Shown: positions 27,702 through 44,888 of the stretch, in pieces
How positions within the stretch are numbered: the first letter of the stretch is position 1
Layout of the letters: each line of letters starts with the position of its first letter
From: Lachnospiraceae bacterium
GTDB lineage: Bacteria; Bacillota; Clostridia; Lachnospirales; Lachnospiraceae
DNA length: 64,000 nucleotides
Assembly: GCA_017938315.1 (NCBI GenBank)
Contig: JAGBBV010000007.1
Location: 76,974-140,973 of the forward strand
Direction: 5' to 3'
Program-made: the position numbers and the translations under genes
Notes under the pieces: model-generated
Database searches by the model: none
Told to the model about the DNA's origin: nothing
What the model saw: the letters and a program-made list of their open reading frames with translations, nothing else

Positions 27702-29459
27702 ATGGCTTTTGACGGAATTACAGTGGCCGCCGTTGTTTCTGAATTACAGGAAACCCTCGTGGGCGGACGTATCTATAAAATTGCACAGCCCGAAAATGAC
27801 GAGCTGTTACTTACCATAAAAACAAAAGACGGTGGACAGACAAAGCTTCTGCTTTCGGCAGGTGCTTCTCTTCCCCTTATTTATCTGACGGAGACAAACA
27901 AGCAATCTCCCATGACTGCTCCCGGCTTTTGTATGCTTCTTCGAAAGCACCTGCAAAATGGCCGCATTACTGATGTTACCCAGCCGGGGCTTGAGAGAAT
28001 CGTACAGATTCATGTGGAGCACTTAAATGAAATGGGCGATTTATGCCGCAAAATTCTTGTTATGGAAATCATGGGCAAGCACAGCAATATTATTTTCATA
28101 AACGGTGAAGATATGATTATCGACAGTATCAAGCACATTTCCGGCATGGTCAGTTCTGTGCGTGAGGTTTTGCCCGGAAGAGATTACTTTATTCCTATGA
28201 CACAGGATAAAAAAGACCCGCTTACTGTTACGGAATCTGAGTTTAAAGAAATGATTAGCAGTAAATCTACTGCGGTCTATAAAGCACTTTACACCTCATT
28301 TACCGGACTGTCCCCGCAAATTTCCCAGGAAATCTGTGCGGCTGCCCTTGTTGACGGAGAGGCATCTACTGCTATCTTTTCAGAAACTGCTGACGGAAGA
28401 AAACTTTTAGATGGACTATACCAGGCTTTTGATAAGATTATGTCCTGCGTAAAGGAACATAAATTCTCCCCCGGAATCATTTATGAAAATGGTGTCCCTG
28501 TGGATTTCTTTGTGATACCACCGGTTTCCTATCCACAAGAATCATTACGCCCGTTTACATCCATCTCCACTCTTTTAGAGCAGTATTATTCGGAGAAAAA
28601 TACCATTACACGTATCAGACAAAAGTCTGTAGACCTTCGCAAGATTGTTCAAACTGCACTGGAGCGTAACATTAAAAAATACGATTTGCAAGTCCGCCAG
28701 ATGCAGGATACGGAAAAGAAAGATAAATATAAAGTTTATGGGGAATTATTAAATACTTACGGTTACGGCGCATCTCCCGGTGCCAAATCCCTTGAGGCAC
28801 TAAACTATTACACCAATGAAATGATTACCATTCCTCTGGATCCGCAGCTTACTACTACGGAAAATGCGAAAAAATATTTTGATAAGTACAATAAGTTAAA
28901 ACGTACCTATGAGGCACTTTCCAAACTCACGCTTGAGGTTAAGGCAGAAATCGACCATTTAGAATCCATTCAGAACGCTTTAGATATTGCCCTTCTCGAA
29001 GAAGATTTGACACAGATTAAGGAAGAACTGATTGAGAGCGGCTATATTCACCGTAAAGGCGGCAATAAAAAGGTAAAAATCACCAGCAAACCTTTTCACT
29101 ATATCAGCAGCGACGGCTTTCATATGTATGTTGGCAAAAACAACTACCAGAACGAAGAACTGACCTTTAAATTTGCAAACGGTGGTGACTGGTGGTTTCA
29201 TGCAAAGGGTATGCCCGGTTCCCACGTAATTGTCAAAACAAACGGTGAAGAACTTCCCGACAATACTTTTGAAGAAGCTGGCCGCCTGGCTGCCTACTAC
29301 TCCAAAGGAAAAGGTCAGGAAAAGGTAGAAATTGATTATGTAGAAAGAAAGCATGTGAAAAAGCCTAATGGCAGCAAGCCCGGATTTGTGGTTTATTATA
29401 CGAATTACTCTATGATGATTGACAGTGATATTTCTAATATAAAAATGGCAGAGGGATAG
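27702..29459 (+). CDS. rqcH: Ribosome quality control protein RqcH (NFACT/FbpA family)
   Basis: MAFDG, PGFCMLLRKHL, EIMGKHSNII, VGKNNYQNE, WFHAKGMPGSHV, KPNGSKPGFV; start moved to ATG 27702. Confidence 0.95.
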   Translation: MAFDGITVAAVVSELQETLVGGRIYKIAQPENDELLLTIKTKDGGQTKLLLSAGASLPLIYLTETNKQSPMTAPGFCMLLRKHLQNGRITDVTQPGLERIVQIHVEHLNEMGDLCRKILVMEIMGKHSNIIFINGEDMIIDSIKHISGMVSSVREVLPGRDYFIPMTQDKKDPLTVTESEFKEMISSKSTAVYKALYTSFTGLSPQISQEICAAALVDGEASTAIFSETADGRKLLDGLYQAFDKIMSCVKEHKFSPGIIYENGVPVDFFVIPPVSYPQESLRPFTSISTLLEQYYSEKNTITRIRQKSVDLRKIVQTALERNIKKYDLQVRQMQDTEKKDKYKVYGELLNTYGYGASPGAKSLEALNYYTNEMITIPLDPQLTTTENAKKYFDKYNKLKRTYEALSKLTLEVKAEIDHLESIQNALDIALLEEDLTQIKEELIESGYIHRKGGNKKVKITSKPFHYISSDGFHMYVGKNNYQNEELTFKFANGGDWWFHAKGMPGSHVIVKTNGEELPDNTFEEAGRLAAYYSKGKGQEKVEIDYVERKHVKKPNGSKPGFVVYYTNYSMMIDSDISNIKMAEG

Positions 29460-29476
29460 CAAAATGCTATCCCTCT
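29450..29476. terminator. Terminator between converging rqcH and array B
   Basis: AGAGGGATAGCA-aaa-TGCTATCCCTCT 12-bp perfect stem. Confidence 0.8.
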
Positions 29477-29484
29477 TTACTAAA

Positions 29485-31353
29485 TCATTGTTGCATGTTA
29501 TCTTTTAATTCTTCATCTGCTTCCTCCCAGGAAGACCAGTTATCCGGCAAAATAAACATTATCCCATCTGCCATTGTCGTAAAGATATCTGCCTCATACA
29601 AATCTTCCCAGTTTATGATATCTTCATTTAGCGAATACTTTAAACTGCCGCCTCCTAAATATGTGCCGCTATCAGGTAAAAAGCAGGATACGGATTGATT
29701 TTTTGCAGCCCACTTTATTTGTTCATTTATCTCTTCACAGTGGTTCTTCCACCCTTTCTCTGAATCACTGTCAAAAGCAGTCATGGGCAATACCACACTT
29801 CTTAAATTGGGAAGTGCCAATACTTCTTCTGCTCCAACTAATTCATCCGGTCTCATCATTGTCGCAATATATAATACTTCCAGATTCTTTAAATAGGCCA
29901 GCTCACTAATATCCAATTCATCTGCATATGTTTCATTATTTGTATCAAAAAAAAGATATTCCAAATTCTCACATTGTGAAATATATTCAAAGGTTGTAGG
30001 GGCAGAGTTTGATATACATAATAATGTTTCTAAATTAGGAAACCGCGAGATTCCTTCATAGCTTAACGGTACTGTACAGTTCACTCTTAAAAACTTAAGA
30101 CTTTCCAGGCTTTCTCCTTCCTCTTCAAAGTATTCTGCCACAGCCTTATTCTTATTCCCTATTATGGAAAGCTCCCGCAGCTTGCTCATACTATCCAAAA
30201 AAACAGGCTCTCCAAACTCACAACTATCAATAGAAAGTTCCCTAAGCTGTACAAGCTCTGAAAGCTCCTCCTCATCAAATTCAAGTCCATAGAAATTTAA
30301 GGAGAAAAGCGACTCAATTTCCACTAAACTATTAAGGTTCTTTACTTTCAGTATCGACTCCTCTTCCCGCTCCCAAGGATTTTTTCTACTTACCACAGTT
30401 AATGTTTTCAGCTCTTCAAATTTCGAGAACAGTTTCATGTCTATGGTTCCAGCCAAACATTCTATATAGATATCTTCCATATCTGCAGGTAATTCCTCTA
30501 TATAGTCTTTTAATCCCTCTTCATTTTCTACAGACAGTCTATAGGTAATATTATCTTCCACACCTGTATATTCATCATATTGATACTGCCAATAATCCAA
30601 ATATTCTTCCATATCTGCATTCCCTGTTGTAGTATGAGCCTGTATCATCTGTCCAAACACAGCTGTATCCCACTTATCCTCAATGGTAATTTCTTCCTTA
30701 TGGTCAGTCAGAAATTTCTGATGCTCTTTTGCAACCTGATAGCCCAAATCAATATATTCCAGTTTCGGTAACTGCCCTATCATTTCTCCCAAATATTTAT
30801 AGCCCATTGGGAATTGTCCAAAATAATTAGTATATCCCGGATTATACCTAACCGATAAATTCTCCAGTTCCTCACACTGTGTGATTACATCCAGATTAAC
30901 CAGTATATCCCGCTTTAAATCATTATCAATCATCAAAGTATGTAAGCCTGTCATATACTTTAAGTCACACAGATCCACATAATTCATGGGAACACTTATC
31001 TGATCATACATTGGTTGCCCAAATATTCCCATATCCAAATCGCAGTCTATCAAGAGTTCTTCAATCCCGGCACATTCCCGTTCGGTTATAGGTTCCTGCG
31101 CCTCCTTACCTAAGGTAAGACGCACACATCTCTCTACCAGAGGGTCCTGGAATTCTACTTTTTTGTTAAGCAGCATATATCCTAATACCACGCATACAAC
31201 TAAAAGCATGATTACTATACATACAATCATCCCTTTTAAGATGCCTTTTTTTGCATCTTGCATTGATGTGCTTGCATCCTCTATCACTGTCCCGCAACTA
31301 GGGCAAAAATGAGTGCCATCCTTTAGTTCCTTTCCGCACTGCCTACAAAACAT
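29485..31353 (-). CDS. Zinc-ribbon/TM protein with leucine-rich-repeat ectodomain
   Basis: MFCRQCGKELKDGTHFCPSCG; TM; LRR cap FQDPLVERCVRLTLGK; LxxLxxLxL repeats such as LSELVQLRELSI, LDSMSKLRELSI, LAYLKNLEVLYI. Confidence 0.88.
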   Translation of the reverse strand: MFCRQCGKELKDGTHFCPSCGTVIEDASTSMQDAKKGILKGMIVCIVIMLLVVCVVLGYMLLNKKVEFQDPLVERCVRLTLGKEAQEPITERECAGIEELLIDCDLDMGIFGQPMYDQISVPMNYVDLCDLKYMTGLHTLMIDNDLKRDILVNLDVITQCEELENLSVRYNPGYTNYFGQFPMGYKYLGEMIGQLPKLEYIDLGYQVAKEHQKFLTDHKEEITIEDKWDTAVFGQMIQAHTTTGNADMEEYLDYWQYQYDEYTGVEDNITYRLSVENEEGLKDYIEELPADMEDIYIECLAGTIDMKLFSKFEELKTLTVVSRKNPWEREEESILKVKNLNSLVEIESLFSLNFYGLEFDEEELSELVQLRELSIDSCEFGEPVFLDSMSKLRELSIIGNKNKAVAEYFEEEGESLESLKFLRVNCTVPLSYEGISRFPNLETLLCISNSAPTTFEYISQCENLEYLFFDTNNETYADELDISELAYLKNLEVLYIATMMRPDELVGAEEVLALPNLRSVVLPMTAFDSDSEKGWKNHCEEINEQIKWAAKNQSVSCFLPDSGTYLGGGSLKYSLNEDIINWEDLYEADIFTTMADGIMFILPDNWSSWEEADEELKDNMQQ

Positions 31354-31379
31354 ATGTTTTCTCCTTTTTTTACTATTGT

Positions 31380-33572
31380 CTATTCATCTGCATGGAAATA
31401 AAAATTCTCATCAAAGTATCCGGATAAGCTAAATCCGTCATCCTTGCTTACTTCCACTTCCCAGAATTCTCCGTTGTAGGTAACATCCCAATATATATTT
31501 TGGAATTTACTGTCTTTTCCAATAAAGCTAAAGGTCTCACCGTTCTTATTTGCTTCATCTGCATCCAGTGTCAATACATCACCTAAAATTTCGTTTCCGT
31601 AATAATTTCCTGTATCAAAGTTTTCATCAAGCACAGTGCTTCCACTTATAGTTTCTTCCGTTCCGTCTATAGGATATATAATATCATCATCATATAACTG
31701 CGAAGTGGTCACTCCATCTTTCGTAGTTGTCAGCCTCCAATGTCCTGCATCTTCGTCCCACTCCAAATCAAATTTTGCATCTGTTCCGGTGGCTATGTAA
31801 TGAAGGGATGTCTTGTTGGTATTATCTACAAAGTTCTGTAAACACCACCAAACATCACTTTCCGATGCATATTCCTCATAAACGATTTCTTCGCTGGCAA
31901 CTGCCGCCTCACCAAAAAGATAAACTTCCGGTGCATCTGCAATATTTCCAAGTATTTCTCCGTTTGTCATAGGCTGATAATTATATGTATGATTATATTC
32001 TATAATGTCAAAAATATCATATACTCCGTCACTTCTCTTTGCATAAATTTTTCCATATGCATATCCATAGCTCTCATAATCACCGTCTAATGCAACACTA
32101 CCATCTACGAAAGAATATAGTTTTCCATCTTTGTTGTAAAATACGTCTACTGCCTCATTTGCATCATTTACTTCCACTACACTGTCACCGTTTATGTAAT
32201 GAATATTATAATTAAACCCGGTACAATTGCCTTCTTCATCGTATTGAGCTTCGCGCTCGAAACTACGTATTCCATAATGCATATTTTCAGGATGATCGAA
32301 CGAATCCTCGACCTCTGATATATAATAAATACCATTTTCATCATAGTAATACCTTGTCAGATAATCGGATGACGCAATCCAGAAAATGTTTCTGTGCCGA
32401 TCAAACTCATAGTAATCATCTGATACATGTAACACATCACCTTTTTCATTAACCAGACAGTTCCACTTACTATAATCCTCATAATTGAAAATATGAAACC
32501 GGAAATATCCATCTCCCGCGTCTTCCAAGTCTATCTCATAACCATTACACTCGCTTAAATAAGAAAACAATGGATTACCCATTTCATCATATACCGTACA
32601 TTCCCCTACATTTGAAGCATTAAAATGTTCACTCTCTATTCCCGTATCTACCATTATTCCAAAATAATTATCAAATTTTTTTATGAATTCGGCTTCTTCT
32701 TCGATTTTCTTTATTACATTACCATCGCTATCATATAACTCTACACCGTCTTCTGTTTCAAAATACAAATTATTACTTTTACCGATGCAGTTACATCCCA
32801 CAAAATCTACAGCCTCCTCCAAGGGCAAATTGGGAATAATCATACCATTTTTTAAATTTATCACTCCGAGCAAGTTATACTCTTCATCCTTAATCCAGTG
32901 AAACGGACAACCATGGTCAAAAGAAGAATACGATATTTCTCCCGCTTCTTCCGTAAACAATTCACTAGTATCTAACAATAATTCTCCGTCTGAATTATAA
33001 TAATAAATATTATCATCTGTTCTTACGGTAAGTATATCATTTCCCAGATATTGATGAGACATCTTAGGGGAATCACATATTTTCTCACCTTGCCAATCAT
33101 ATATTGACCAATCTAAACTCCTAAACAAACACTCGTCAGAAAACATATAATCATCTACGCCCGACACCGCAAATTCTCCCACCTTCTTCACGGTCAGGAT
33201 ATCTGACTGATACTCTAACGGTTCCCAATTGTCATTACCGTTTGTATCATTATCTGCTGATGCATGTCCTTCTGTATCATTTTCAGTCTCTTCACCATTC
33301 ATAATATCTTCTTCCTGTGAAGATTTGTTTCCACTATCCGGCTTTCTGCTCAGTGTCATACCAAAAGCAGTCCCTGCACCTACCAGGGCAAGAATTGCCA
33401 CTAAGCCAATAACCATGCCCTTTTTCGATTTCTTTTGTTTCACGGGTTCTGGGGTTGTCTGGACACTGTTTTCCACAGTCTTTTCTATTTTATTCTCTTC
33501 CACCGCACTTCCACAATTGGGGCAAAAACGGATTCCTTCCTTTAGTTCCTTTCCACACTGTCTGCAATACAT
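31380..33572 (-). CDS. Zinc-ribbon/TM protein with WG-like beta-repeat ectodomain and duplicated C-terminal domain
   Basis: MYCRQCGKELKEGIRFCPNCG; KQKKSKK then TM; repeated (Y/L/V)(Y/D/N)xxG(E/N/D) blades. Confidence 0.8.
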   Translation of the reverse strand: MYCRQCGKELKEGIRFCPNCGSAVEENKIEKTVENSVQTTPEPVKQKKSKKGMVIGLVAILALVGAGTAFGMTLSRKPDSGNKSSQEEDIMNGEETENDTEGHASADNDTNGNDNWEPLEYQSDILTVKKVGEFAVSGVDDYMFSDECLFRSLDWSIYDWQGEKICDSPKMSHQYLGNDILTVRTDDNIYYYNSDGELLLDTSELFTEEAGEISYSSFDHGCPFHWIKDEEYNLLGVINLKNGMIIPNLPLEEAVDFVGCNCIGKSNNLYFETEDGVELYDSDGNVIKKIEEEAEFIKKFDNYFGIMVDTGIESEHFNASNVGECTVYDEMGNPLFSYLSECNGYEIDLEDAGDGYFRFHIFNYEDYSKWNCLVNEKGDVLHVSDDYYEFDRHRNIFWIASSDYLTRYYYDENGIYYISEVEDSFDHPENMHYGIRSFEREAQYDEEGNCTGFNYNIHYINGDSVVEVNDANEAVDVFYNKDGKLYSFVDGSVALDGDYESYGYAYGKIYAKRSDGVYDIFDIIEYNHTYNYQPMTNGEILGNIADAPEVYLFGEAAVASEEIVYEEYASESDVWWCLQNFVDNTNKTSLHYIATGTDAKFDLEWDEDAGHWRLTTTKDGVTTSQLYDDDIIYPIDGTEETISGSTVLDENFDTGNYYGNEILGDVLTLDADEANKNGETFSFIGKDSKFQNIYWDVTYNGEFWEVEVSKDDGFSLSGYFDENFYFHADE

Positions 33573-33587
33573 ATTCTGTCCTCACTT

Positions 33588-35030
33588 TCATTCTCCTACA
33601 TATTCACTGTAACTAGATTCATGTAGCGTAAGCCAATCAATTTCTCTTTTTTCCATACACTCTTCTTTCATTCCATTATCCTGCATATTTGACTTAATCA
33701 ATAAGTCAATATCTTCTTTTGAGCAAAAAACTATTCCCTTCTCTTCCAGCAGTTGTATAAAGCTCAAACATTCTTCTTCATAATCATAGTCAAGCTCATA
33801 CGTATGGAAAATTCCGTCCCCTATGTAATAAGTAGCTATACAAAGTTCATCATTTTCCTGTTCATAATCAAAGCACTCTTCATAGGCCTCATAATCAATT
33901 TCTCCGGCCCACATACCATAATTGTGAGAAGCACTATAAACCTCTTTACACCTGCCATCTTCACCAATTAAGCTATAGCTATCATACATGGCACCGGCGC
34001 CACCGCTTCCTAAGTATTCCACAAGTCCATAATGATAAAGTTCTAAGATACCTCTCGCATAATGAAACCCTGCATAGCAGACACTGAGTTCACCATCTTC
34101 ATATCTGATAACAAAAGTCATATTGCTGTCATCATCATCGCAGTAATAATCAAGGCCAACAAAACGAAGTGCTAAATCAGGTACCCCATCCTTACCACAA
34201 TCAATGAAAGAATACTGTATACTGCTTAGTGTCTCATCCGAACCAGAATAGTCCAAATATTCTGCTTGTAGCATTTCAAGTATATCCTGCATGGCAACCC
34301 TGTTATTTGCATCCATATAGCCGTCAAAATTACCCGTTACATCGTTTGAAACACAAGCAGAAGTATTGCCTTTCAAAAAATCATCATATAAATCCAGAAT
34401 TTCCTCTTCCATTATTCTCTGTGGTGTTTCCTCAGATTCCCCTGTGCCCGTCTCTGCCGGTATCTCTTCCGCAGCAGCTTCTTCCGTGCGCTCCTCTGTC
34501 AGTACCGCTTCCGCCACTAATTCTCCTGACACCCCCGGTTTCTCATCGCGGTTTTCCTGCATTTTCTTTATCGCTTTTTTTATTTTTGGGGAGTCTGTTA
34601 TTTCATAGCCTTCCTCTAAAATTTCTGTCGCCTTATCATACTCTCCCATTTCTTCATAAACATCAGACAGTAACAAATATGCGACTTCATCTTTCTCACT
34701 TAACTTGATTGCCTTCTTAAGTTCTTTCACTGCACGGTCAAATTTGCCTTCCTCCGCATAAGATTCAGCCTCTTCAATATAAGTTGCATATTCACCGGTT
34801 TTTTTTGCCCGGGCAGTCAAAAAAACAATTGCTCCTATAAGCACTGCTAAAATAATAACCGCAACGACTATTAAAAGAACTTTCCACAATTTTCCTGTTT
34901 TTTTCTTTTTTACCGGAAGTTCATCCCGGGCCGGCATGGTCTGCACACTTCCTTCTGCTTTATGGCCGCAAGCAGCACAAAACATTGCTTCATCCTGCAT
35001 TTGATTGCCACATTTACTACAATATTTCAT
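33588..35030 (-). CDS. Zinc-ribbon/TM protein with TPR and acidic C-terminal domain
   Basis: MKYCSKCGNQMQDEAMFCAACG; KKKKTGK then TM; TPR FDRAVKELKKAI...AYLLLSDVY; DCGKDGVPDL loop. Confidence 0.85.
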   Translation of the reverse strand: MKYCSKCGNQMQDEAMFCAACGHKAEGSVQTMPARDELPVKKKKTGKLWKVLLIVVAVIILAVLIGAIVFLTARAKKTGEYATYIEEAESYAEEGKFDRAVKELKKAIKLSEKDEVAYLLLSDVYEEMGEYDKATEILEEGYEITDSPKIKKAIKKMQENRDEKPGVSGELVAEAVLTEERTEEAAAEEIPAETGTGESEETPQRIMEEEILDLYDDFLKGNTSACVSNDVTGNFDGYMDANNRVAMQDILEMLQAEYLDYSGSDETLSSIQYSFIDCGKDGVPDLALRFVGLDYYCDDDDSNMTFVIRYEDGELSVCYAGFHYARGILELYHYGLVEYLGSGGAGAMYDSYSLIGEDGRCKEVYSASHNYGMWAGEIDYEAYEECFDYEQENDELCIATYYIGDGIFHTYELDYDYEEECLSFIQLLEEKGIVFCSKEDIDLLIKSNMQDNGMKEECMEKREIDWLTLHESSYSEYVGE

Positions 35031-35065
35031 TGTAAAAAACTCCTTTGTTTACGATTAACTCCCAT

Positions 35066-36214
35066 CTATTCTTCTAGAAAAAATGCATCAATTCCGTTTG
35101 CAATTCCTGCAACAATCTTCAACTGATATTCCTCTGTTGCCATCAACTCATCCTCTGTAGGATTTGTCATATACCCCATTTCCACAATGGTTACCGGCAC
35201 CTGGCACCAGTTAATGCCACTCATGGTGTCTGTTTCCCAGACACGCTCTCTTCTTGCACCTGTTGCCGCCACCATTTCGTCCAACACATAAGTAGATAGT
35301 GCCTTACTCTTGCTATATAATTCTGCATTATAAGGATTGGACGAGGTCTGGCATATGGTCATGGAACCACTTACCGACGAATTGGTAGAACCGTTTGCAT
35401 GAATTCTGACAAACGCATCTGCCTGATTGGAGTTTGCAATCTCTGCTCTTTCTGCGTTACTGATGTTGATATCATTGGTTTCCCTGCACATGATTACCTG
35501 ATATCCTCTGGCTTCCAATTCCTCTTTCAGTTTTAGGGAAACTTCCAATGTCAGTTCATATTCCGGCTTTCCCGTAGAAACTCCCGATGTTCCCCCTGCC
35601 ACCTTGGCTTTCATTTCCGTAGCACCGGGACCCACAGGTTCTTTTTCGGAATTTCCTTTTTTCTGGTGACCTGCATCAATCACAACAAGTTTTCCTGTTA
35701 TCTCTATTTTTTCAGTGGTTAAATAATCCTCACTGATAAATCCTTCTTTTCCATTATACCGGACAAAATACCAGCCATCACAGTGACCATGTGCCTGTAC
35801 CTGCACATTTCTCGGCAGGGTATCAATAATGTCTGAATCAGTGGAATTTGATACCCGGAAATTCACCTTGTCAGTGGTATAATACGCAGTTTCCGGAATT
35901 TCCTCTATGACAGGTTGCTGCTGTTCTTCCTGCGTCTGTTCTTCATCTGCTGTAGTTGCCTCTTTTGTTTCGCTCTCCGGTGCTTCCGCATCCGGAACTT
36001 CGTCCGCCAAACCGGCAGTCACATCAGCAGTTGCCTCTTCCTTTTTGTTTTCCACGCTTTCCGGCTCTTCTATAGAATTATCTTCGCTTTCCTGTGGTAT
36101 CTCTACCGTTTCTACTTCATAGGATGCTTCAGAATCTTTTTCGGCACAACCGGTCACCAAAAATGCTATGCTTATGCATAGGCAAACCAATGCAGATTTT
36201 ATTTTTGTTTTCAT
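35066..36214 (-). CDS. Lipoprotein SH3b + N-acetylmuramoyl-L-alanine amidase (Amidase_3)
   Basis: Lipobox LVTGC; SH3b VNFR...[19 protein letters not shown]; zinc ligands IDAGHQ, EYEL, RIHANG; catalytic VEMGY. Confidence 0.93.
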
Positions 36215-37128
36215 CGATAGCCCATCTCTTTCTCGTACTCTACAATCAAATCTCTGTTTGCAACTTCCACATCGCTTAACATAGATTCTTTAAAATCTGA
36301 CGCATCTATGGTTCCTTTATACCAGCTACATCCGTCAAAGTAGTTTTGTAATGATTCATCCGTAAAGCGTCTACCATGGCGTGCATACAATTCATTTCTT
36401 GCAAGTCTGCACTCATCTGCGGTGAGACCTTCCAAATCATCCATGGTTAAATATTTTACATCGCTGTCCTCTAAAATATATTCAGACTCTTCTTCCTCTT
36501 CAACGGCTTCCACATCTGCTTCTTCTACAGCTTCTTCGTAATCTTCTTCCATATCTGCTTCTTCTACAGGTTTAGCATCTGCTTCTTTTACTGCCTCTTC
36601 CTTTATGTCTTCAGCCTCTTTGGCTTCTTCCTCTTCGGCTTCTTCCTCTTCGGCTTCTTCCTCCGGGATTTCTTCTTCGGCATCTTCTTCCTCTTCTACT
36701 TCCTCTTCATCGCTGTCGATGTCTACTGAAATTCCTATGGCTTCATATATTTTTTCTTTTCCGCCTTTTATCCAAAACTCCACAAGAGAAACTCCAATGA
36801 GTGCCAGAATAATGACGGTTAATACGATAATCAGCGCAACAATAACACCTATTCCTTTTTTCTTAGCAGGCTTTTGCACATCTACCGGCTGTGCAACAAC
36901 AGGCTGTACATTCTCCGGCTGCGCATTAACAGGCTGTGCACTAGCAGGTTGCACGTTCTCCGGCTGTGTATCAACGGGTTGCACGTTCTCCGGCTCTGCA
37001 TTTGTAATTGGTGCCTCAGTTACCTGTTCGCTTACCGGCTGCGCGGGTGCACTTTTTACCACCGCTCCACAGCTTGTACAAAACTTTACACCATCTCTGA
37101 GTTCCTGACCACATTGTGTACAAAACAT
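36211..37128 (-). CDS. Zinc-ribbon/TM protein with poly-Glu stalk and YARHG domain
   Basis: [21 protein letters not shown]; QPENVQP repeats; KKK then TM; [15 protein letters not shown]. Confidence 0.92.
36481..36717 (-). repeat. Glu/Ala-rich low-complexity stalk with 15-bp tandem units
   Basis: [15 protein letters not shown]; ttcttcctcttcggc repeated on + strand. Confidence 0.8.
36883..36996 (-). repeat. QPENVQP / QPV linker repeats
   Basis: Three copies of (E/Q)PENVQP with QPV spacers. Confidence 0.85.
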
Positions 37129-37129
37129 C

Positions 37130-38989
37130 CTAATTTTCTCCCTTCAATTCAAGCCTTTTCTTTTTGTTTCTTTTTGCCACCAGTATGGTAATCACAATAC
37201 TGATCAGCAGTATCAATATGCCTGCAACTGATGCAATTGCAAAGATTCTTTCTATCTTGAGGTATTGTGCTGCTTTTGTTGCAGATTTTTCTGCTAATTC
37301 TAAGTATTTCATAGAATTACTAAACCGGTATCTTATGATAAACTGCAAGACGCAAACTGCTTCTGCAACTGCCACCAAAATATCCCATAAAACAATTGGC
37401 CATGTACGGTACTTCTTAGGTGCATTTTTATCCGGCTTCTTCATGACAAATAAGGCTATCATGATAATAACCATGCTGGCAAGCAGCGTCACTAATAATG
37501 GCAACAGCTCTGCCAATCCGATTTTGCTAATGACGCCACCTACTAAGTCTGACCCTTTATATAAAGTCAACACCATTTTTGATGTATTGCCGTTTACGTC
37601 TTCTGCTTCTAACTCAATTAAGTTCTCACCCATGGACAACACGGCGTTATATGTAAAGTTACCATTTTCATCCGGCGTTATGGTCTCTCCTGCAACACGG
37701 AGAACATTTCCACCTGATATTTTTCCGATAATCGCTGCACTATCTGTATAGAAGGTCTTTCCATCCAAATCCTCATACAGCTTAATTTCCGGCGGAATGA
37801 AATCACAGTAGACTTCGGTATCTACAATGTAGGTTATTAGGTCATCCGTTTCCATTTCCGCATAGATGGTATTCATACCTTCTATAAGGTCAAATGAAAC
37901 TTCTCCCTCACCACTCACCTGATACATGCTATCCACGCCATTTACGTTCACATTTAACATGCGTTCTTTTTGAGCACTGTACTTCAAAACCGCTTGGGAG
38001 GAATTGGTTACCTCCGGCGTTATCATGGTCAGCGTCTCTTCCGTTAGGGAAATTGTTTTTATCTTTTTGGAAGACCTAATGTTATCGTCTGTATAAGATA
38101 AAACAATTTCAAGTGCTGTCGAATCTTCCGGGAACATAATACTATCTTGTGTTGCATTTTTTCCCCACTCTGCTTCATATATCATTTCGCCTGCTACTGT
38201 TGCTTTAATCTGATAAGCATCCGCTCCCCAGCCTACATAATCTTCCCAGTCTATCCGGCAAAGCAGATTATCCCTATCCACTTTTACTTTGAAATTTTCA
38301 ATTACCTGCGGCTCATTTGGGTTATCATAATCAAAGGCTTCCGATAACATGGTGTCAAATACTTCCGCATATCCGTCATCATAATATACTTCCAGGCGCA
38401 GTACATAATTATCTCCGGATAGTCCACTCATTTTGACAGTAGTTTCTGTATCTTCGCCTGACTTGGCACTACCCTGCGTAAGTAACGTAACTGCATCTGT
38501 ATCTGTTGTACTGACAGCATACAATTCATAATTGTAATAAATATCTGCGGGCTCATAATCAGCACGGAAAGCGGCTGTCATTTTCCCATTTTCACCCTCT
38601 GATACATTCAAATATTGAATCCAAAGTCCATTATTCTCTTGCACAATATCATAGGTGATCTCGCTGTTTCCTTTTAAGTCATATTCTACCTTCCATGTTC
38701 CGGCTTTTGCATCCTTAATGCGGTAAGTACACCACAGTTCACCCGACGCATATTCTACATCACTGTCCCCATTTGTTTTCCTCTCCCCGGATGGTGATAT
38801 AAATGTAATATCTACTACTTCTTTATCAAATGTAAAGAGAACCGTTAAATCTCCCTGTGTATCGGTAGTCACTATTTCTGCCTGTTTGGGTGCAGCCTGT
38901 ACAAATACAGCATTCATCCAAAAGGATAAACACAGTACCAATATCTGTATCCATATTCCAATTTTTCTTTTCATCGACGTTCTCATCAT
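37130..38989 (-). CDS. Exported multi-Ig/beta-sandwich protein with C-terminal TM helices
   Basis: Signal peptide ending VQA-AP; beta-rich domains, e.g. PPEIKL...DENGNFTYNAVLSMGENLIELEAEDVNGN; three C-terminal hydrophobic segments. Confidence 0.75.
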   Translation of the reverse strand: MMRTSMKRKIGIWIQILVLCLSFWMNAVFVQAAPKQAEIVTTDTQGDLTVLFTFDKEVVDITFISPSGERKTNGDSDVEYASGELWCTYRIKDAKAGTWKVEYDLKGNSEITYDIVQENNGLWIQYLNVSEGENGKMTAAFRADYEPADIYYNYELYAVSTTDTDAVTLLTQGSAKSGEDTETTVKMSGLSGDNYVLRLEVYYDDGYAEVFDTMLSEAFDYDNPNEPQVIENFKVKVDRDNLLCRIDWEDYVGWGADAYQIKATVAGEMIYEAEWGKNATQDSIMFPEDSTALEIVLSYTDDNIRSSKKIKTISLTEETLTMITPEVTNSSQAVLKYSAQKERMLNVNVNGVDSMYQVSGEGEVSFDLIEGMNTIYAEMETDDLITYIVDTEVYCDFIPPEIKLYEDLDGKTFYTDSAAIIGKISGGNVLRVAGETITPDENGNFTYNAVLSMGENLIELEAEDVNGNTSKMVLTLYKGSDLVGGVISKIGLAELLPLLVTLLASMVIIMIALFVMKKPDKNAPKKYRTWPIVLWDILVAVAEAVCVLQFIIRYRFSNSMKYLELAEKSATKAAQYLKIERIFAIASVAGILILLISIVITILVAKRNKKKRLELKGEN

Positions 38990-39000
38990 GTCACCTCAAA

Positions 39001-42000
39001 CTAAGTTAATATACCGCTTTTATCTTTTTTAATTCTACCCTTCTCATTGATGTAATAGAAATCGCCTTTCACGTTTCCATCACTGTCCTGACTCCTGTAT
39101 CTGAAGATAAACTGAAGTTCATCATTATGATTCTTATAAAAACCAACTGCATAGGTTCCTTGTTTTTTTTGACCGGCACTAAACAGCCACCATTTAATAT
39201 CGCAGGCTGCCAGTCCTTCGTATACTGCTCCTACAAATCTGGTATGGGCATTCAGTTCACCGGAGCCTGATAAATCTAAGGAAATTTCTTCATTTTCACT
39301 CTGCCACATTAATCCGGTTTTCAGTTTTGCCCTAAGACCTTTTACTGCTTCATTGTCTAATTGAAGTAACGAGTTGGTATAATCAAAATTACCGATTTGT
39401 ACCTCTGCCTGTGCCAACTGGATTTTCGTTAGAAATACCAGTTTTGCATTTGTTTCAATTTGGAACGGACTTAAACATAAGGATGCAGTTGTATCGGGCA
39501 TAGACAATATGCTGAGATTTCCTACAAATTTTTCCAACTGGGGCAGGTATTCTTTTACTTTCATACTGGTAATGGAAACGCCGCCCGTCAGTTTTATCTT
39601 TTTCCAGTCACCACTGGCAACTGCATCGTGAATATTAGATGCTCCAAACATAAAATCATTGAATTCCAGAGGTATCGCTGTTTTTAATTTTATTGAATTT
39701 CTTTTTCTTGCTTTTAAACTCACTGAATCCAATTCAAGGTTATCTTTCCATGTTGCCTCTGCACTGAGTCCCGTAGAAGTCTTTTCCAAATCCAGGAAAT
39801 TTAGCATAACAGAAGCACTGACAGAATATTCTTCTTTCAAAGTATTGATTTTCAATCCCGCCTTACCGTTAAGCCATACAGGAACGCTGATAAAGGCAAC
39901 CTGCTTTGCATCATTTTTATCAAACTCTGTTCCCAGTTCTGCCTCTGCCACCATGCCAACGTTCTTGTCGGTAACCTTCACTTCTCCTTTTAAGTCAAAG
40001 CTCAGCACCTCTTTTTTGCCACTGTCTCCAAATATTTTATCTTGGAAAGGCAGTTCCGGTGTTGCATTATCGTAATACAGACTTATATTGTCAGGATAAA
40101 GCCTAACCACTACTGTCTTAAACCGTGCGAGACTGTATATTGCCCAAACGCCTATCTCGATATCGTCTACTGCATAGTTGTCGTAATCGTATAGGTTTTG
40201 TTGATCATTATACAATGTAAAATATGGTAATGCCGGAAGATCAATGGAAATTCCCTTCTGTGCAATCTTTTGTCCGAAACCGGTTGCCGTAGCAGTATCA
40301 TATTGCACATAAGAGCCACTCAGATCACTTACTTTTATGGAATAACTTTCTTTTACATCACCTACTATATTCACATCTCCCTTAAAATGCAGCCAACCAT
40401 TCATGGTTACATTTCCTCTAAGGGTCCGGTTATCAATATCATTTTCTATTATTTCAGATGCAGTAAATACATATGGTCCAAAAACAATCTTCTTTTCACC
40501 GCATTTCGCAATTACGGAGAAACCATTTTCCAGTACTTTCCGTTTTCCGTCTATGCTGATTTCTACATTGTATTTACCTACTGCCACACTTGCAGGTATT
40601 GTAAGCTCGTAGGTCTCTGCATCTACATAAGTAGCTGTTACGGAATAATCAATATTGCCGTTGAGCTTTACGGATATTTCACTATCTTTATTAAATCCAC
40701 TGCCCTTTAAGCGGACAGTTGTATCCTGCATACCTTTATAAATATATCTTGGAGACATTCCCTGAATGCTTAGTTCATTGCTAACAGCAAGTCCCTCTCC
40801 TGTTTCCCCTTCTCCTTCGCCTTCTAAGGAATAAGTCTTTACATCACGAAGATTTTCATCCGGCATGGAAATTTCCAGTGTACGCCCTGTCATGGTGATG
40901 GTGTCTTTTGCCTGATAGGTGATTTCATACTGATTATAAACCTGTGCATGTAGCAAATCATAAAAGGACGACAAGCTGGAACTGTCTGATACATAAAGGA
41001 ACTCACCATTACCACTTCCCGCAATGGTGCTTAAATAATTGGTATCCACACTTGTTCCAAGACCCATGGTATAAACAGTGATTCCCTTTTGCAGGGCACG
41101 GTTTCCGATTTCCCTATAGATTGTCTCTGCATCCCTGGCATAATTATCCTGTCCATCTGTCATTAAGATAAGGACATTATTGTCCTCCGGCTCTGCCGAG
41201 AAACCATCCAAACAGTTTGTAACCGCTGAGAAAATGTCTGTACCGCCGGCTATTTGCATATTTTGGGCAAACGCAATCAGTTCATCATCCGGCGTTCCGA
41301 AAAACTTTGTATCAACAATGGTATCATCAAAGGTAACCACTGCAATATCTTCATTTGCATTCTTATCCGTAATAAAGGTAACCACCGCATCCCTTAAATC
41401 CTGGATGTTTCCGCTCATACTGCCGGAGACATCACAGACAAGCATGATGTTGGAGCCTTCATAATTGATCTTCTTAAGTGTAAAATCAGAAATTTCTGCA
41501 CCGCAGTCGTACACTTTCAGTGCTGCCTTAATTTCATTTACATCCGTCAGATAATCACTGTCTATCTGTACTGTAGATACAATCTTTTCAAAACCGGAAG
41601 CATCAATTTTGCCGATAGAAATAGCACTTTTAACCCGGCTCACATAATCAACGGTAGTCCTTGTAAAGTCAACAGATTTTTCCTCCTCTTCTATCGGAAT
41701 CTGGTTTTGAGGAGAAACAATACTTTCAACATTTACTGTCAGGGAATGATCTAACACGTTTTCCACATAGGTAGAAACATTTTTAATGTTTTCTTTATCA
41801 TTTTCTTCATCGTTACTGATGACTGTAATAATCTGTGACATTGCGGAAACATAACTGTCATCTTCACATTCCGGAGAACTGTAGATAGCTGTACTCAAAT
41901 AGGAATCGGTAGATGTTTCATTACCGAAATAGTTTTCTATCTTTGCAAGTTCCAGATATACCTTCGTTGCATCTGTACCCGCTTCCTCTTTTGCAACATC

Positions 42001-43128
42001 TGTCAGTTCCTCCTTTACGGATGTAAGAACCGGATCTTCTAACTGTACACTAATGGCCTCAATACGTTCTTTAAATGCTTTCTTTTCCTGCTTGTTTAAA
42101 TCATCTGAATTATCTTTATAAATTGCAGACAGCTTATCCTCTATCATATCAGCATTTTGGTTGTCAATCTTTTGATAGTCCTCTGAAAAATCAGATTCCT
42201 TGACTAAACCACTCATATATAATTCAGCTACTACCATCAGTTCGTGGTAAGAAGCTTTTTCTTCCAATTTTTCTGCTATCTGCTCATAATCACCGCTTAT
42301 CACATATGCTTTGATACGTGCTTTTTCCACACATTCCATCGCCAGATATTCCGGTGCATTACTTTCTATATCTTCAAAAGTTCTGCCATATCTGCGCAGA
42401 TCCTTTTCTTTTTCTTCACTTTCCTCTTCCGTTGCGTAATTATTTTCTGACACATCATCATATACTTCTAAAATGCCTGCTACTGCTTCTGCACAGTCCG
42501 AGCACTCATCAGTAATACTGTACCTGTCTTCTATGGCATTTTTGATATCTCTTCTAATATCATCAATTGTTTTCTGTTCACTCTCTTTGATATCCTCGTA
42601 TACACTTTCTGTGTATCCATAGTCTTCAATATTTTCCCCAACAGACTTTAAATAATCTATCATAACAAGGTCTGCTGTGCTGTTATTCCATTTTATGTCT
42701 ACAAATACAACTTCCTCTGCATCTGCAGAAATTAATTCTGTATTTTCACACAAATATCGATATAAGCCGTGGGCACTTTCAAAGTCCCCTTCCAGAACTG
42801 CAATACGTGCTGTCAGCAGTCTGCACTCATCATTATATCCGTATTCACTGCTATATTGTTCTAAAACCTCAATGGCTGCGTCATAGGCGCCTTCTTCTGC
42901 AAGGGCATTGGCAAATGCCATCATTTTCTTTTCAGACATCTGCACCTGCATGCCGCCTTCCTCCATGAGAGCGGTGCCACCGAAAAATAAGGATATTCCG
43001 CAGCCTGCCATAAGCAGCAATGTTGAAAAAATCGCACTAAAACAAAACGCCCGCCGCTTTATTAGTAAAATAATTGCAACCAACGCTCCCGGTAATAATC
43101 CTAATCCTATTTGCAACCAAATATTCAT
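39001..43128 (-). CDS. Large membrane-anchored vWA domain protein (TM-TM, helical/TPR-like region, vWA, IPT/TIG-like, beta-rich C-terminus)
   Basis: Intact MIDAS: VCDVSGSM, GGTDI, LMTDGQD, VYTMGLG; IPT-like IQGMSPR...LKGSGF...GKYNVEI. Confidence 0.85.
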   Translation of the reverse strand: MNIWLQIGLGLLPGALVAIILLIKRRAFCFSAIFSTLLLMAGCGISLFFGGTALMEEGGMQVQMSEKKMMAFANALAEEGAYDAAIEVLEQYSSEYGYNDECRLLTARIAVLEGDFESAHGLYRYLCENTELISADAEEVVFVDIKWNNSTADLVMIDYLKSVGENIEDYGYTESVYEDIKESEQKTIDDIRRDIKNAIEDRYSITDECSDCAEAVAGILEVYDDVSENNYATEEESEEKEKDLRRYGRTFEDIESNAPEYLAMECVEKARIKAYVISGDYEQIAEKLEEKASYHELMVVAELYMSGLVKESDFSEDYQKIDNQNADMIEDKLSAIYKDNSDDLNKQEKKAFKERIEAISVQLEDPVLTSVKEELTDVAKEEAGTDATKVYLELAKIENYFGNETSTDSYLSTAIYSSPECEDDSYVSAMSQIITVISNDEENDKENIKNVSTYVENVLDHSLTVNVESIVSPQNQIPIEEEEKSVDFTRTTVDYVSRVKSAISIGKIDASGFEKIVSTVQIDSDYLTDVNEIKAALKVYDCGAEISDFTLKKINYEGSNIMLVCDVSGSMSGNIQDLRDAVVTFITDKNANEDIAVVTFDDTIVDTKFFGTPDDELIAFAQNMQIAGGTDIFSAVTNCLDGFSAEPEDNNVLILMTDGQDNYARDAETIYREIGNRALQKGITVYTMGLGTSVDTNYLSTIAGSGNGEFLYVSDSSSLSSFYDLLHAQVYNQYEITYQAKDTITMTGRTLEISMPDENLRDVKTYSLEGEGEGETGEGLAVSNELSIQGMSPRYIYKGMQDTTVRLKGSGFNKDSEISVKLNGNIDYSVTATYVDAETYELTIPASVAVGKYNVEISIDGKRKVLENGFSVIAKCGEKKIVFGPYVFTASEIIENDIDNRTLRGNVTMNGWLHFKGDVNIVGDVKESYSIKVSDLSGSYVQYDTATATGFGQKIAQKGISIDLPALPYFTLYNDQQNLYDYDNYAVDDIEIGVWAIYSLARFKTVVVRLYPDNISLYYDNATPELPFQDKIFGDSGKKEVLSFDLKGEVKVTDKNVGMVAEAELGTEFDKNDAKQVAFISVPVWLNGKAGLKINTLKEEYSVSASVMLNFLDLEKTSTGLSAEATWKDNLELDSVSLKARKRNSIKLKTAIPLEFNDFMFGASNIHDAVASGDWKKIKLTGGVSITSMKVKEYLPQLEKFVGNLSILSMPDTTASLCLSPFQIETNAKLVFLTKIQLAQAEVQIGNFDYTNSLLQLDNEAVKGLRAKLKTGLMWQSENEEISLDLSGSGELNAHTRFVGAVYEGLAACDIKWWLFSAGQKKQGTYAVGFYKNHNDELQFIFRYRSQDSDGNVKGDFYYINEKGRIKKDKSGILT

Positions 43129-43152
43129 TGCACCATCTCTCCCTCAAAAAGA

Positions 43153-43182
43153 AACCTCCCCGTGCACATACACGGAGAGGTT
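43153..43182 (-). terminator. Internal terminator-like stem-loop in array B
   Basis: AACCTC-C-CCGTG / CACGG-A-GAGGTT (G.U pair on minus strand), followed by UCUUUUU, about 25 nt before the vWA start. Confidence 0.7.
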
Positions 43183-43234
43183 CATTACTTTCATATCTTC
43201 GTAGCAACAGCCGCTTTCCGTACGACTCTACAAA

Positions 43235-43897
43235 TTAATAATTTAAACTACCGTAATGGATTTTCCAACCGCCGTCTTCTTTCACCATAATCAAGTCTTC
43301 TACATTATAGGAACCTGATTTCTTGGAGCCCTTAACGGTTATCTTTAAGTCAACCTTTACAACTTTCTTAATATCGCTAAAGTCCATATCATAGTTGTCA
43401 ACCATAGCTTCTTCAAGGTCTTCCATATTTCTCTTGGAAAGTTCTGTCTCATCAGTGATTTCATAAGAAATTTTCTTGATGTTTTCTACCTTGTCTTCAT
43501 ACTTGTCAAGCACGCTGTCAATAGCATCTTCATAATATTCTTCGAAGTCATCACCGTACCATGCTTCATTGATTTCATCACTGATAGAGCTTGAAAGAGC
43601 TATTAATGCATCTGTATCATCATCTTCTAATGCCTTTACCATTTTATTAAGGGTACCCTTATAACCGGTAAAGTTACTTGCTATATTAACAACTACTACA
43701 AGTGCCACAATTGCAACAATCGCAATTGCAATGAGTGCAATAATGATATTATTGTTTTTCTTTTTTCCTTCATCCGCTGCAGGTGCTGCTGCGGGTGCCG
43801 GATTTACGTTTGCCCCTGCCACAGGTGTACCACACTGTCCACACACCTTATCTTCATCGTTCATCTGAGAACCACAATTAGAACAAAACTTAGCCAT
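43235..43897 (-). CDS. Zinc-ribbon/TM protein with small NTF2-like (DUF4878-like) ectodomain
   Basis: MAKFCSNCGSQMNDEDKVCGQCG; GKKK then TM; ends IMVKEDGGWKI; start at ATG 43897 after GGAGG. Confidence 0.8.
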   Translation of the reverse strand: MAKFCSNCGSQMNDEDKVCGQCGTPVAGANVNPAPAAAPAADEGKKKNNNIIIALIAIAIVAIVALVVVVNIASNFTGYKGTLNKMVKALEDDDTDALIALSSSISDEINEAWYGDDFEEYYEDAIDSVLDKYEDKVENIKKISYEITDETELSKRNMEDLEEAMVDNYDMDFSDIKKVVKVDLKITVKGSKKSGSYNVEDLIMVKEDGGWKIHYGSLNY

Positions 43898-43912
43898 TTT
43901 TACTTCCTCCAA

Positions 43913-44323
43913 TTAAAAATATTTATTTACAATCTGATCAACAACAGGAACTGCAACTGTACCCTGATTTAAAGCTTTCATACCTAAAAGAAGGAACAGA
44001 CATGTTCTGATGATATCAATTGCTTTTGTAATAACACTGATGATTGCGCTAAGAACGCCATAGTTAAAGGATCCCTTAAATACTGCCACCAATGAGTTAA
44101 CCCAGGACAATAAGTCGGGAATCAAACCGATTACTGCAAGAATGAATGTAATGGAAACCATTAACACTGCCGCTTTAACGGCTGCTCTCTTTAACCATTC
44201 ATTTTCTTCAAATAAAAGAACATAGCCAACTAATAAAATAACAGGAGTATATCCTCCGAATAATGCAGCGAAATAAATTGCTGCTCCTAAAAGTCCAACT
44301 GAAATTCCTAATTTTGCTTTCAT
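43913..44323 (-). CDS. Small polytopic membrane protein of unknown function (DUF4870-like)
   Basis: Hydrophobic 136 aa; LLFEENEWLKRAAVKA; VPVVDQIVNKYF tail. Confidence 0.7.
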   Translation of the reverse strand: MKAKLGISVGLLGAAIYFAALFGGYTPVILLVGYVLLFEENEWLKRAAVKAAVLMVSITFILAVIGLIPDLLSWVNSLVAVFKGSFNYGVLSAIISVITKAIDIIRTCLFLLLGMKALNQGTVAVPVVDQIVNKYF

Positions 44324-44369
44324 TTGTTTTCCCTTTCTCTATCTTTCGTTTTTTATTATTTTTACCGTT

Positions 44370-44825
44370 TTATACCGGCTTGCCGCAGGATGTACAGAAT
44401 TTACTGCCGGGTGCAATCACTGCTCCACAATCCGCACAATGTACTTCTGCTGCTACAGGTTCTGCTGCAGGTTCTGCCATCTTTGTTCCGCATACAGCAC
44501 AGAAAAGCGCATTATTTGCAACTTCTGCTCCACATGTAGGACAATTAGACACTCCCTTTAATTCCTTTACATTATTGCGGTATTCTTCTACCTTATCCTG
44601 GGAAGCCTTTAAAAGATCTAAGAGCTCTTTGAAATTTTCATCCGCAGACTCTCCAAGAACCTCCACATACTTCTTTCCGATCTGTTCATAAATACCGGTA
44701 ATCTTTTTTTCTTCGTCATTAATCAAAGAATTAAATTTTGCGACATCTGCCATATCCTTGCCTTTTTTAAGTGCTCCCTGGCTGGCATCAGAAATGGTTT
44801 TGCCCATGTTGTCTAAAAAACCCAT
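44370..44825 (-). CDS. Soluble helical/coiled-coil protein with C-terminal double zinc ribbon
   Basis: No TM; CPTCGAEVANNALFCAVCG and CADCGAVIAPGSKFCTSCG; AGGAGG RBS. Confidence 0.88.
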   Translation of the reverse strand: MGFLDNMGKTISDASQGALKKGKDMADVAKFNSLINDEEKKITGIYEQIGKKYVEVLGESADENFKELLDLLKASQDKVEEYRNNVKELKGVSNCPTCGAEVANNALFCAVCGTKMAEPAAEPVAAEVHCADCGAVIAPGSKFCTSCGKPV

Positions 44826-44859: not shown

Positions 44860-44888
44860 ATTTTATCATTTTTGTAGATTTATGTCAA
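44860..44888 (-). promoter_or_regulatory. Strong SigA-type promoter of array B
   Basis: TTGACA (44888-44883), 17 bp, extended -10 TGaTAAAAT (44868-44860). Confidence 0.85.

Follow-up and report, generated by a model that had tools for sequence, protein, structure and literature searches.

A ten-gene envelope cluster of a gut Lachnospiraceae that may be a mosaic of separately conserved modules

We analysed a stretch of 64,000 nucleotides (hereafter the window) of contig JAGBBV010000007.1, from a Lachnospiraceae bacterium, in which ten minus-strand open reading frames (ORFs), tightly packed and here called g1 to g10 from the promoter end, span 15.3 kb. An earlier note on the same DNA had taken these genes for a single operon encoding one envelope complex. 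About 120 related loci were compared overall, collected either with the von Willebrand factor A (vWA) protein g4 or with the amidase g7 as seed. The comparison leads us to regard the cluster, with a probability of roughly 0.6, as an evolutionary mosaic of separately conserved envelope modules placed behind one conserved sigma-70-type promoter, and not as one dedicated machine. Four predicted parts are shown by the conservation of gene neighbourhoods: a leader unit (g1-g3), an autonomous surface pair (g4-g5), a wall module (g6-g7) and three variable zinc-ribbon proteins (g8-g10). The products of the ten genes are listed below.

g1: 44370..44825, minus strand; 151 amino acids (aa), soluble, with a helical N-terminal region and two C-terminal zinc ribbons (DZR)
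g2: 43913..44323, minus strand; 136-aa membrane protein with three to four predicted transmembrane (TM) segments and no family
g3: 43235..43912, minus strand; zinc ribbon, one TM segment and an ectodomain of about 150 aa; likely start at ATG 43897
g4: 39001..43128, minus strand; 1375 aa, with a TM hairpin, TPR-like helices, a vWA domain, an Ig-like domain and a beta-rich C-terminal domain of 500 aa
g5: 37130..38989, minus strand; 619 aa, with a signal peptide, Ig/FN3-like domains and three C-terminal TM helices
g6: 36211..37128, minus strand; zinc ribbon, one TM segment, acidic linker and YARHG domain
g7: 35066..36214, minus strand; lipoprotein (lipobox LVTGC) with an acidic linker, SH3_3 and Amidase_3 domains
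g8: 33588..35030, minus strand; zinc ribbon, one TM segment, TPR repeats and a C-terminal region of 300 aa without family
g9: 31380..33572, minus strand; zinc ribbon, one TM segment and an ectodomain of 650 aa without known family; variable gene
g10: 29485..31353, minus strand; zinc ribbon, one TM segment and an LRR-like ectodomain; variable gene

Results

Gene organisation

All ten minus-strand genes proposed in the earlier note correspond to ORFs. The successive junctions from g1 to g10 measure 46, 0 (15 if g3 starts at ATG 43897), 106, 11, 1, -4, 35, 15 and 26 bp, in agreement with the gaps of -4 to 46 bp previously given; the one larger gap had been put at about 120 bp and is 106 bp long. 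Since 50 of the 52 ORFs of the window lie on the minus strand, the co-orientation of the ten genes is uninformative. Pfam agreed with the labels DZR for g1, vWA for g4, Ig-fold for g5, ribbon-YARHG for g6, amidase for g7 and ribbon-TPR for g8.

The g4-g5 pair

A genome scan seeded with the vWA protein yielded 37 loci (L001-L037) encoding near-full-length or truncated g4 relatives with 30-78% identity. They came from Lachnospiraceae, Acetatifactor, Merdimonas, Oribacterium, Ruminococcus sp. Marseille-P6503, Fusibacter and metagenome-assembled genomes (MAGs) labelled Clostridiaceae and Acutalibacteraceae. More than 80 full-length g4 relatives were present in the protein collection. Linkage was read by tblastn and phmmer, using all window proteins against the vWA-seeded loci. 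The closest genome was the Lachnospiraceae MAG L001, with a g4 protein 78% identical to that of the window, 89% DNA identity and fully syntenic flanks. In every locus from L001 to L037 having downstream DNA, a g5 gene directly followed g4, with protein identities of 23-82%. In locus L152, where g4 is only 26% identical, g5 again followed g4, with a 179-aa ORF in between. TG-extended sigma-70-like promoters were found directly before g4 in L011, L012, L014, L016, L017, L022, L025 and L035. Gene order thus shows g4-g5 to be the only universally linked pair and, as predicted from these contexts, a unit that stands on its own in many species.

The vWA domain of g4 was recognised by PF00092 at 57.3 bits (gathering score 23.8), and PDB profile matches and fold matches agreed. 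Its metal ion-dependent adhesion site (MIDAS, DxSxS...T...D) is complete: D566, S568, S570, T630 and D658 were invariant in 15 sequences down to 27% identity. An AlphaFold2 model of residues 480-1375, with a mean predicted local distance difference test (pLDDT) of 77, places a small beta domain before the vWA and Ig-like domains and has a C-terminal region rich in long antiparallel strands (11-20 residues). When this model was compared by Foldseek with PDB and BFVD, all matches fell on the vWA domain (ANTXR2, ITIH1, BatB, LapA vWFA). Profile searches of Pfam and PDB gave no significant match for the C-terminal 500 aa; the hits to FapA (E 0.015), DUF6603 (E 0.0014, one member) and YdbH-like proteins (E 0.25) were treated as chance. 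This domain was detected in 203 proteins out of 1.84 billion library representatives, nearly all of which have a length of 1300-1450 aa and carry it C-terminally, and is, as judged from these matches, a narrow family of fixed architecture. The protein ends in ...KKDKSGILT, with no LPXTG motif and no hydrophobic tail, and the ten-gene cluster contains no sortase domain or pilin gene.

For g5 the only Pfam match at E <= 0.01 was Glucodextran_B, which is Ig-like. In the AlphaFold2 model of this protein (pLDDT 83.5), a signal peptide is followed by some five beta-sandwich domains, which span residues 35-478, and then by three TM helices; Foldseek returned only generic strings of FN3, Ig or macroglobulin (MG) domains. 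In databases these proteins are labelled 'VWA domain-containing' or 'hypothetical' only, and no description of the g4-g5 family was found in the searchable literature on zinc ribbon/YARHG/von Willebrand, TcaA and Bat proteins.

Some individual loci deserve mention. In the cultured Oribacterium asaccharolyticum ACB7 (L015, 10001-14157) g4 is split into ORFs of 256 and 1119 aa, and in L009 and L010 (Acetatifactor/Lachnospiraceae MAGs), around 14100-15900, g5 is matched by tblastn without an intact ORF; both cases may reflect a pseudogene or an assembly error. Two ORFs encoding VanY (D-Ala-D-Ala carboxypeptidase) are located about 330 bp upstream of g4 in L152 (6882-7675); this cell-wall enzyme belongs to a family different from that of the window amidase.

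The g6-g7 pair

In g6, Zn_Ribbon_1 was matched at 35.8 bits (residues 2-22) and YARHG at 72.8 bits (residues 216-300), with a TM segment near residue 100. This ribbon-TM-YARHG architecture is identical to that published in 2012 by Coggill and Bateman, who proposed that YARHG binds peptidoglycan, suggested that ribbon-TM-YARHG proteins are membrane-tethered transcription factors and did not mention an amidase (PMC3355149). Unlike in that description, the YARHG gene is here found beside an SH3-Amidase_3 gene in many loci and, in the window, overlaps it by 4 bp.

The g7 protein matched Amidase_3 at 140 bits and SH3_3 at 38.6 bits in Pfam. Its alignment to Rv3717 (4m6g) revealed conserved GH, PE, H(A)xG and (V)E(x)G motifs, which we take to be the zinc ligands and the catalytic glutamate. 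By domain match and conserved motifs g7 is thus a predicted Amidase_3 N-acetylmuramoyl-L-alanine amidase. It scored 84.8 bits against the NCBIfam model of CwlD (cut-off 221.55) and was likewise far below the cut-offs of the Rv3717 and AmiA/B/C families.

A metagenome scan seeded with g7 produced 80 loci, 46 of which were at least 8 kb long and had a g7-like ORF; many came from the same species, leaving about nine independent arrangements. A ribbon gene lay directly beside the amidase in 25 of these 46 loci, most with a detectable YARHG domain. The YARHG gene lay upstream of the amidase in some loci, the arrangement of the window, and in others downstream, where it encodes a double-ribbon-YARHG protein of 600 aa. 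Neither g4 nor g5 was detected in any of the 46 loci, and the shorter ones gave just one trace, a weak match in L099 that did not extend beyond the vWA domain. Conversely, g6 and g7 occurred in only two of the 37 vWA-seeded loci, L001 and L005 (g4 78% and 57% identical). The conserved linkage between vWA and amidase genes expected in the earlier note is therefore contradicted from both sides, and g6-g7 is shown to be a predicted independent module, found elsewhere without g4-g5.

Arrays of three to five ribbon genes were present in the amidase-associated loci L076, L077, L090, L124, L132 and L144, and included a g1-like protein in L124 and L132. Because ribbon-YARHG genes pair with the SH3-amidase, the hypothesis of 2012 that YARHG acts on peptidoglycan gains gene-neighbourhood support. 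The position of ribbon-YARHG beside the amidase points to a putative amidase partner rather than a transcription factor.

Promoter, terminators and internal hairpin

Four transcription signals were located in and around the cluster.

44860..44888, minus strand: sigma-70-type promoter with extended -10, TTGACA-17-(TG)TAAAAT; the -10 element ends 35 nt before the g1 ATG
43142..43183, minus strand: internal intrinsic-terminator-like hairpin and U-tract; hairpin 43183-43152 in the 106-bp g3-g4 gap
29450..29476, minus strand: terminator hairpin at the end of the cluster, 12 pairs of which 6 are G-C, followed by GCCATTTTTA; -19.2 kcal/mol
44915..44953, minus strand: terminator of the upstream CotF-like genes, an 18-pair hairpin followed by TTGTATTA; -24.6 kcal/mol; it sets the 5' boundary of the cluster

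The promoter and the end terminator had both been noticed before and were recovered here. The promoter, at 44888-44860, was the top sigma-70-type match in the region (11 of 12 positions plus TG). A match of 11 of 12 alone is expected by chance 0.65 times per region of this size, so that the call is supported by position, between the upstream CotF-gene terminator and g1, and by conservation, not by match score alone: the element was kept upstream of the g1 orthologues of L001 and L005, and in looser form in L024 (Fusibacter). The end terminator (29476-29450) was still present in L001, although g10 is missing there.

The reading as a single operon stood as far as co-oriented genes and short or overlapping junctions are concerned; it failed on the absence of an internal terminator, as the conserved hairpin at 43183-43152 had been overlooked. 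This hairpin has the sequence GAACCTCTCCGTG-TATG-TGCACGGGGAGGTTTC, then TTTTTGA. Its stem of 13-14 bp, with 7 G-C pairs, is followed by CTTTTTGA and ends 22 nt before the g4 ATG, directly before the ribosome-binding site of this gene. Folding of the g3-g4 gap gave a z score of -3.7. With a free energy of -22.6 kcal/mol, the internal hairpin is more stable than the end terminator, and its U-tract is also the better of the two. It was found at the same place in L001, L002 and L005 (g4 55-78% identical to that of the window), that is in four species with the window. Over these four sequences 48 of 48 stem cells were paired, with one position varying between G-C, G-U and A-U. Rfam matched no family anywhere in the window, and the hairpin is therefore not a known riboswitch or leader. 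It is probably an attenuator between g1-g3 and g4-g10. Since only 22 nt, without space for a promoter, separate the hairpin from g4, we infer that g4-g10 are reached by read-through in this lineage.

In L035 (1291-1423), g4 has a TTGACG-17-TATAAT promoter of its own; between this promoter and the gene, 36 nt ahead of the start codon, lies a leader hairpin with its T-tract. Terminator-like leaders preceding g4 may thus be a wider regulatory theme, beyond the g3-g4 boundary.

Leader genes g1-g3

The g1 protein matched Pfam Zn_Ribbon_1 and DZR above cut-off and has no predicted TM segment. Orthologues adjoined g4-g5 in L001, L005, L024, L034, L150 and L152. The order from g1 to g4 in L150 was the same as in the window, while L152, which carries the most divergent g4 relative (P0086, 26% identity), encodes a full-length g1 orthologue (31% identity, E 2e-31) and has another ribbon gene downstream of the pair. 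For four g1 relatives with at least 50% identity, the longest contig equals in length that of a g4 homologue. For g2, no match was obtained in Pfam or NCBIfam, and the gene was found in L001 and L002 only among the vWA-seeded loci. In g3, called ribbon-NTF2-like in the earlier note, the ribbon was confirmed (Zn_Ribbon_1, 30.5 bits); the NTF2-like part corresponds to weak matches of the ectodomain to SnoaL_3/DUF4878 (E 0.03-0.13). Orthologues of g3 lay directly upstream of g4 in L001, L002, L005 and L024, with alignments beginning at residue 6. The three genes are thus shown to form a putative short leader unit that ends at the conserved intrinsic-terminator hairpin.

Distant g1-like double-ribbon proteins (25-28% identity) were also found directly upstream of ispD-ispF in unrelated Clostridia contigs (L147-L149, at 8001-8591, 5453-6043 and 7582-8196, respectively). 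They were rejected as part of this system, their conserved context being ispD/ispF.

Variable genes g8-g10

The g8 protein matched TPR_19, TPR_2 and Zn_Ribbon_1, its C-terminal region being without family, and an orthologue was found in L001 only among the vWA-seeded loci. In g9 the ribbon alone was recognised; no family was assigned to the ectodomain, and the WG repeats previously proposed were not recovered. In g10 Zn_Ribbon_1 was present, and the LRR label is reflected in matches below the Pfam gathering scores (LRR_14, 30.1 bits for a cut-off of 40; LRR_4, 25.2 bits for a cut-off of 27).

L001 lacks the DNA corresponding to window positions 33585-31569 and 31374-29475. All of g10 and most of g9 are thereby gone, whereas about the last 65 codons of g9 and the terminator remain. 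Alignment of L001 19520-19795 with window 29475-33585 is compatible with two clean deletions in L001 or two insertions in the window, and looks like recent flux among ribbon genes. The comparison shows g8-g10 to be apparently lineage-specific and variable genes that can be lost, g9 and g10 being dispensable as judged from L001.

Zinc ribbons beside the g4-g5 pair

Ribbon genes adjoined g4-g5 in 8 of the 37 vWA-seeded loci. Of the 104 co-oriented ORFs lying no more than two genes from the pair, 12 had an N-terminal ribbon, whereas the remaining parts of these loci had 5 among 285 ORFs (odds ratio 7.3, p = 1.4e-4, Fisher test uncorrected for relatedness). Ribbons were the sole flanking family that recurred across unrelated vWA-seeded loci; ABC transporters and small membrane proteins flanking the pair were rejected as recurrent partners, being lineage-specific. 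The same ribbon (e.g. FCEQCGKEVQKDLKFCTNCG) was also found fused to the C-terminal tail of g5, after the third TM helix, in P0109, P0145, P0155, L029, L034 and L036. From the order of the TM helices and the positive charges, this tail would be cytoplasmic. Soluble double-ribbon proteins of the g1 type and ribbon-TM proteins are thus shown to be recurrent but facultative predicted neighbours of g4-g5, in varying order.

Elsewhere in the window, Array A (14239-18193, minus strand), directly downstream of rny, encodes two further ribbon-TM proteins, one of 675 aa with TPR and an RHS repeat and one of 633 aa without ectodomain family. The 64 kb thus contain nine ribbon-bearing proteins, two in Array A and seven in the cluster studied here, g1 included.

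Comparison with known systems

We compared the cluster with several systems that share one or more of its domains. The Bat (Bacteroides aerotolerance) proteins BatA, BatB and BatD, whose function is still unknown, likewise combine membrane-anchored vWA proteins and TPR regions with a beta-rich partner. The g4 vWA domain superposes on BatB (3ibs) and on 4jdu, with a target-normalised template-modelling score of about 0.7. The likeness to g5 is based on BatD, whose signal peptide and beta-rich ectodomain precede C-terminal TM helices. However, no MoxR AAA+ or DUF58 domain is present among the ten products, g5 has no BatD match in Pfam, g4 is about four times larger and ends in a family-specific domain, and the host is monoderm.

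With the vWA/MIDAS adhesins (pilus-tip adhesins, LapA vWFA, ANTXR2, ITIH), g4 shares the vWA fold and a complete MIDAS, predicted to be exposed outside the cell. It differs from them by the lack of LPXTG in g4 and of a sortase or pilin gene in the cluster, by its anchor, an N-terminal TM hairpin, and by its multi-Ig membrane partner. The g4 protein does not qualify as a sortase-dependent vWA pilus adhesin, as there is neither an LPXTG sorting signal nor a sortase domain in the cluster.

Among Amidase_3 enzymes, CwlD needs GerS, and AmiA/B/C need EnvC or NlpD, as partner. The g7 protein resembles these enzymes and Rv3717 in its catalytic domain and conserved motifs, and it also has a dedicated neighbour gene whose product is a plausible regulator. 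In contrast to the known cases, this candidate partner is a YARHG protein, not of the LytM or GerS type, and activation is putative.

TcaA, the teicoplanin-associated membrane protein of Staphylococcus aureus, also has an N-terminal zinc ribbon, one TM segment and an extracellular domain, and its model was matched by g3 and g8 over the first 70-110 residues. Their scores are nevertheless 31.8 and 25.5 bits for a cut-off of 550, and the ectodomains are unrelated.

Genomic setting

The window, whose G+C content is about 39%, belongs to the core chromosome of an uncultured Lachnospiraceae from the gut; its genes include recA, rny, gmk, glgA and one for an NFACT protein. In a search of public runs its DNA was seen in gut, faecal and sheep metagenomes. 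The matches comprised 24 DNA metagenomes, together with a metatranscriptome and a run of unknown type that gave only a few short contigs, at very thin coverage. In the run of unknown type (X26), one low-identity contig joins window position 39706 to 44414 and skips 4707 bases; with 22 letters on its shorter side, this junction is probably due to chance or chimeric.

Immediately 5' of the cluster, on the minus strand (44977-45436 and 45491-47155), we found a CotF-domain gene (86 aa), a 61-aa ORF without family and a MurJ/SpoVB-like flippase gene. PADLOC models did not identify any anti-phage defence system in the cluster; they gave chance-level matches only (E >= 1e-4), on low-complexity or ribbon stretches.

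Discussion

If the cluster is a mosaic, its modules might work as follows. Genes g4-g10 would be transcribed only by read-through of the internal hairpin, at a lower level than g1-g3. The g4 protein would be held in the membrane by its N-terminal TM hairpin, exposing the MIDAS-competent vWA domain and the novel beta-rich domain on the surface. Together with the stalk protein g5 and its Ig domains, it could form a complex for metal-dependent binding or adhesion. The cytoplasmic zinc ribbons may serve, with g1, as a common docking element by which some single-pass proteins are gathered with g4-g5. Finally, the YARHG protein g6 would position or control the lipoprotein amidase g7 on peptidoglycan, in ordinary wall remodelling independent of the vWA pair.

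Several points weigh against the mosaic. Linkage of g1 through g7 is kept in L001 and L005, and the modules may be functionally coupled in the window's own lineage. Both locus sets contain redundant and related genomes, and the counts and the Fisher test carry no phylogenetic correction. In genomes where no g1 or ribbon gene was seen within 10 kb of the pair, such a gene could sit elsewhere. The hairpin could stabilise the g1-g3 mRNA instead of terminating transcription, or g4 could be driven by an unrecognised promoter. The adhesion role suggested for g4-g5 is an analogy drawn from its domains.

The cluster could also be a sensory array, in which g3, g6, g8, g9 and g10 are one-component TM sensors with variable ligand-binding ectodomains whose cytoplasmic ribbons, in the manner of membrane-tethered regulators, signal to DNA or to g1, with g4-g5 and the amidase as targets or neighbours. 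The combination of a ribbon, one TM segment and a variable repeat ectodomain (TPR, LRR-like, YARHG) is in line with this idea, as are the proposal of a membrane-tethered transcription factor for ribbon-TM-YARHG proteins (PMC3355149) and the arrays of three to five ribbon genes found in amidase-associated loci and, as Array A, in the window itself. However, the ribbon of about 22 residues shows no recognisable DNA-binding or anti-sigma domain beyond its zinc knuckles, no sigma factor or regulator is encoded among the ten genes, and the same ribbon occurs on the tail of the structural-looking g5. We consider such an array unlikely.

According to the model of the earlier note, the ten products form one envelope complex in which the vWA giant serves as scaffold and the ribbon proteins as receptors, while local opening of peptidoglycan falls to the amidase. 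Parts of it are upheld by our results: the products are predicted envelope proteins, ribbon and amidase genes are linked and ribbons are enriched by the vWA-Ig pair, to which they are also fused through g5. The single promoter, the short gaps, the 4-bp overlap and the retention of the g1-g7 order in L001 and L005 would likewise suit a complex. One obligate ten-subunit machine around the vWA protein is opposed by the rarity of the linkage of the amidase to g4-g5 (2/37 and 0/46), by relative L001 (g4 78% identical), from which g10 and the greater part of g9 are missing, by the frequent occurrence of g4-g5 elsewhere alone and with its own promoter and by the conserved terminator that sets g1-g3 apart from the rest. 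Such a complex therefore appears quite improbable, though it could exist as an arrangement confined to the lineage in which g1-g7 remain linked.

A sporulation or germination cluster, with a CwlD-like amidase acting on spore cortex and the other products in the spore envelope, was considered and rejected as very improbable: the CotF-like and SpoVB/MurJ-like genes directly upstream and the weak CwlD match (84.8 bits) speak for it, but this score is far under the cut-off, the promoter is of the vegetative sigma-70 type, the flanks of g4-g5 differ in nearly every other locus, and g7 carries an SH3 domain and a lipobox, neither of which, to our knowledge, is present in CwlD.

Within the mosaic, which we prefer to these alternatives, the ribbon might act as a docking tag, the soluble g1 gathering interchangeable single-pass proteins with TPR, LRR-like, YARHG or NTF2-like ectodomains around the vWA-Ig pair, and the ribbon-YARHG/amidase couple being a plug-in module. 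This proposal is speculative, and we give it little chance of being correct. If it were true, Clostridia would own a modular, swappable surface receptor or adhesion platform of undescribed kind.

All recognisable domains of the cluster are already known. What appears to be new in the searchable literature is the g4-g5(+g1) module, the orphan C-terminal domain of g4, the ribbon-YARHG/amidase neighbourhood and the fusion of a ribbon to g5. Tight packing behind one promoter is, in the present case, no evidence for a single machine. Very little is known of the surface biology of Lachnospiraceae, which are dominant commensals of the gut, and our analysis defines in them a conserved surface module of two genes, a 1375-aa MIDAS protein and its multi-Ig membrane partner, represented by about 200 sequence clusters in Clostridia. 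The cluster also points to the N-terminal zinc ribbon, very common in Firmicute membrane proteins, as a possible interaction tag.

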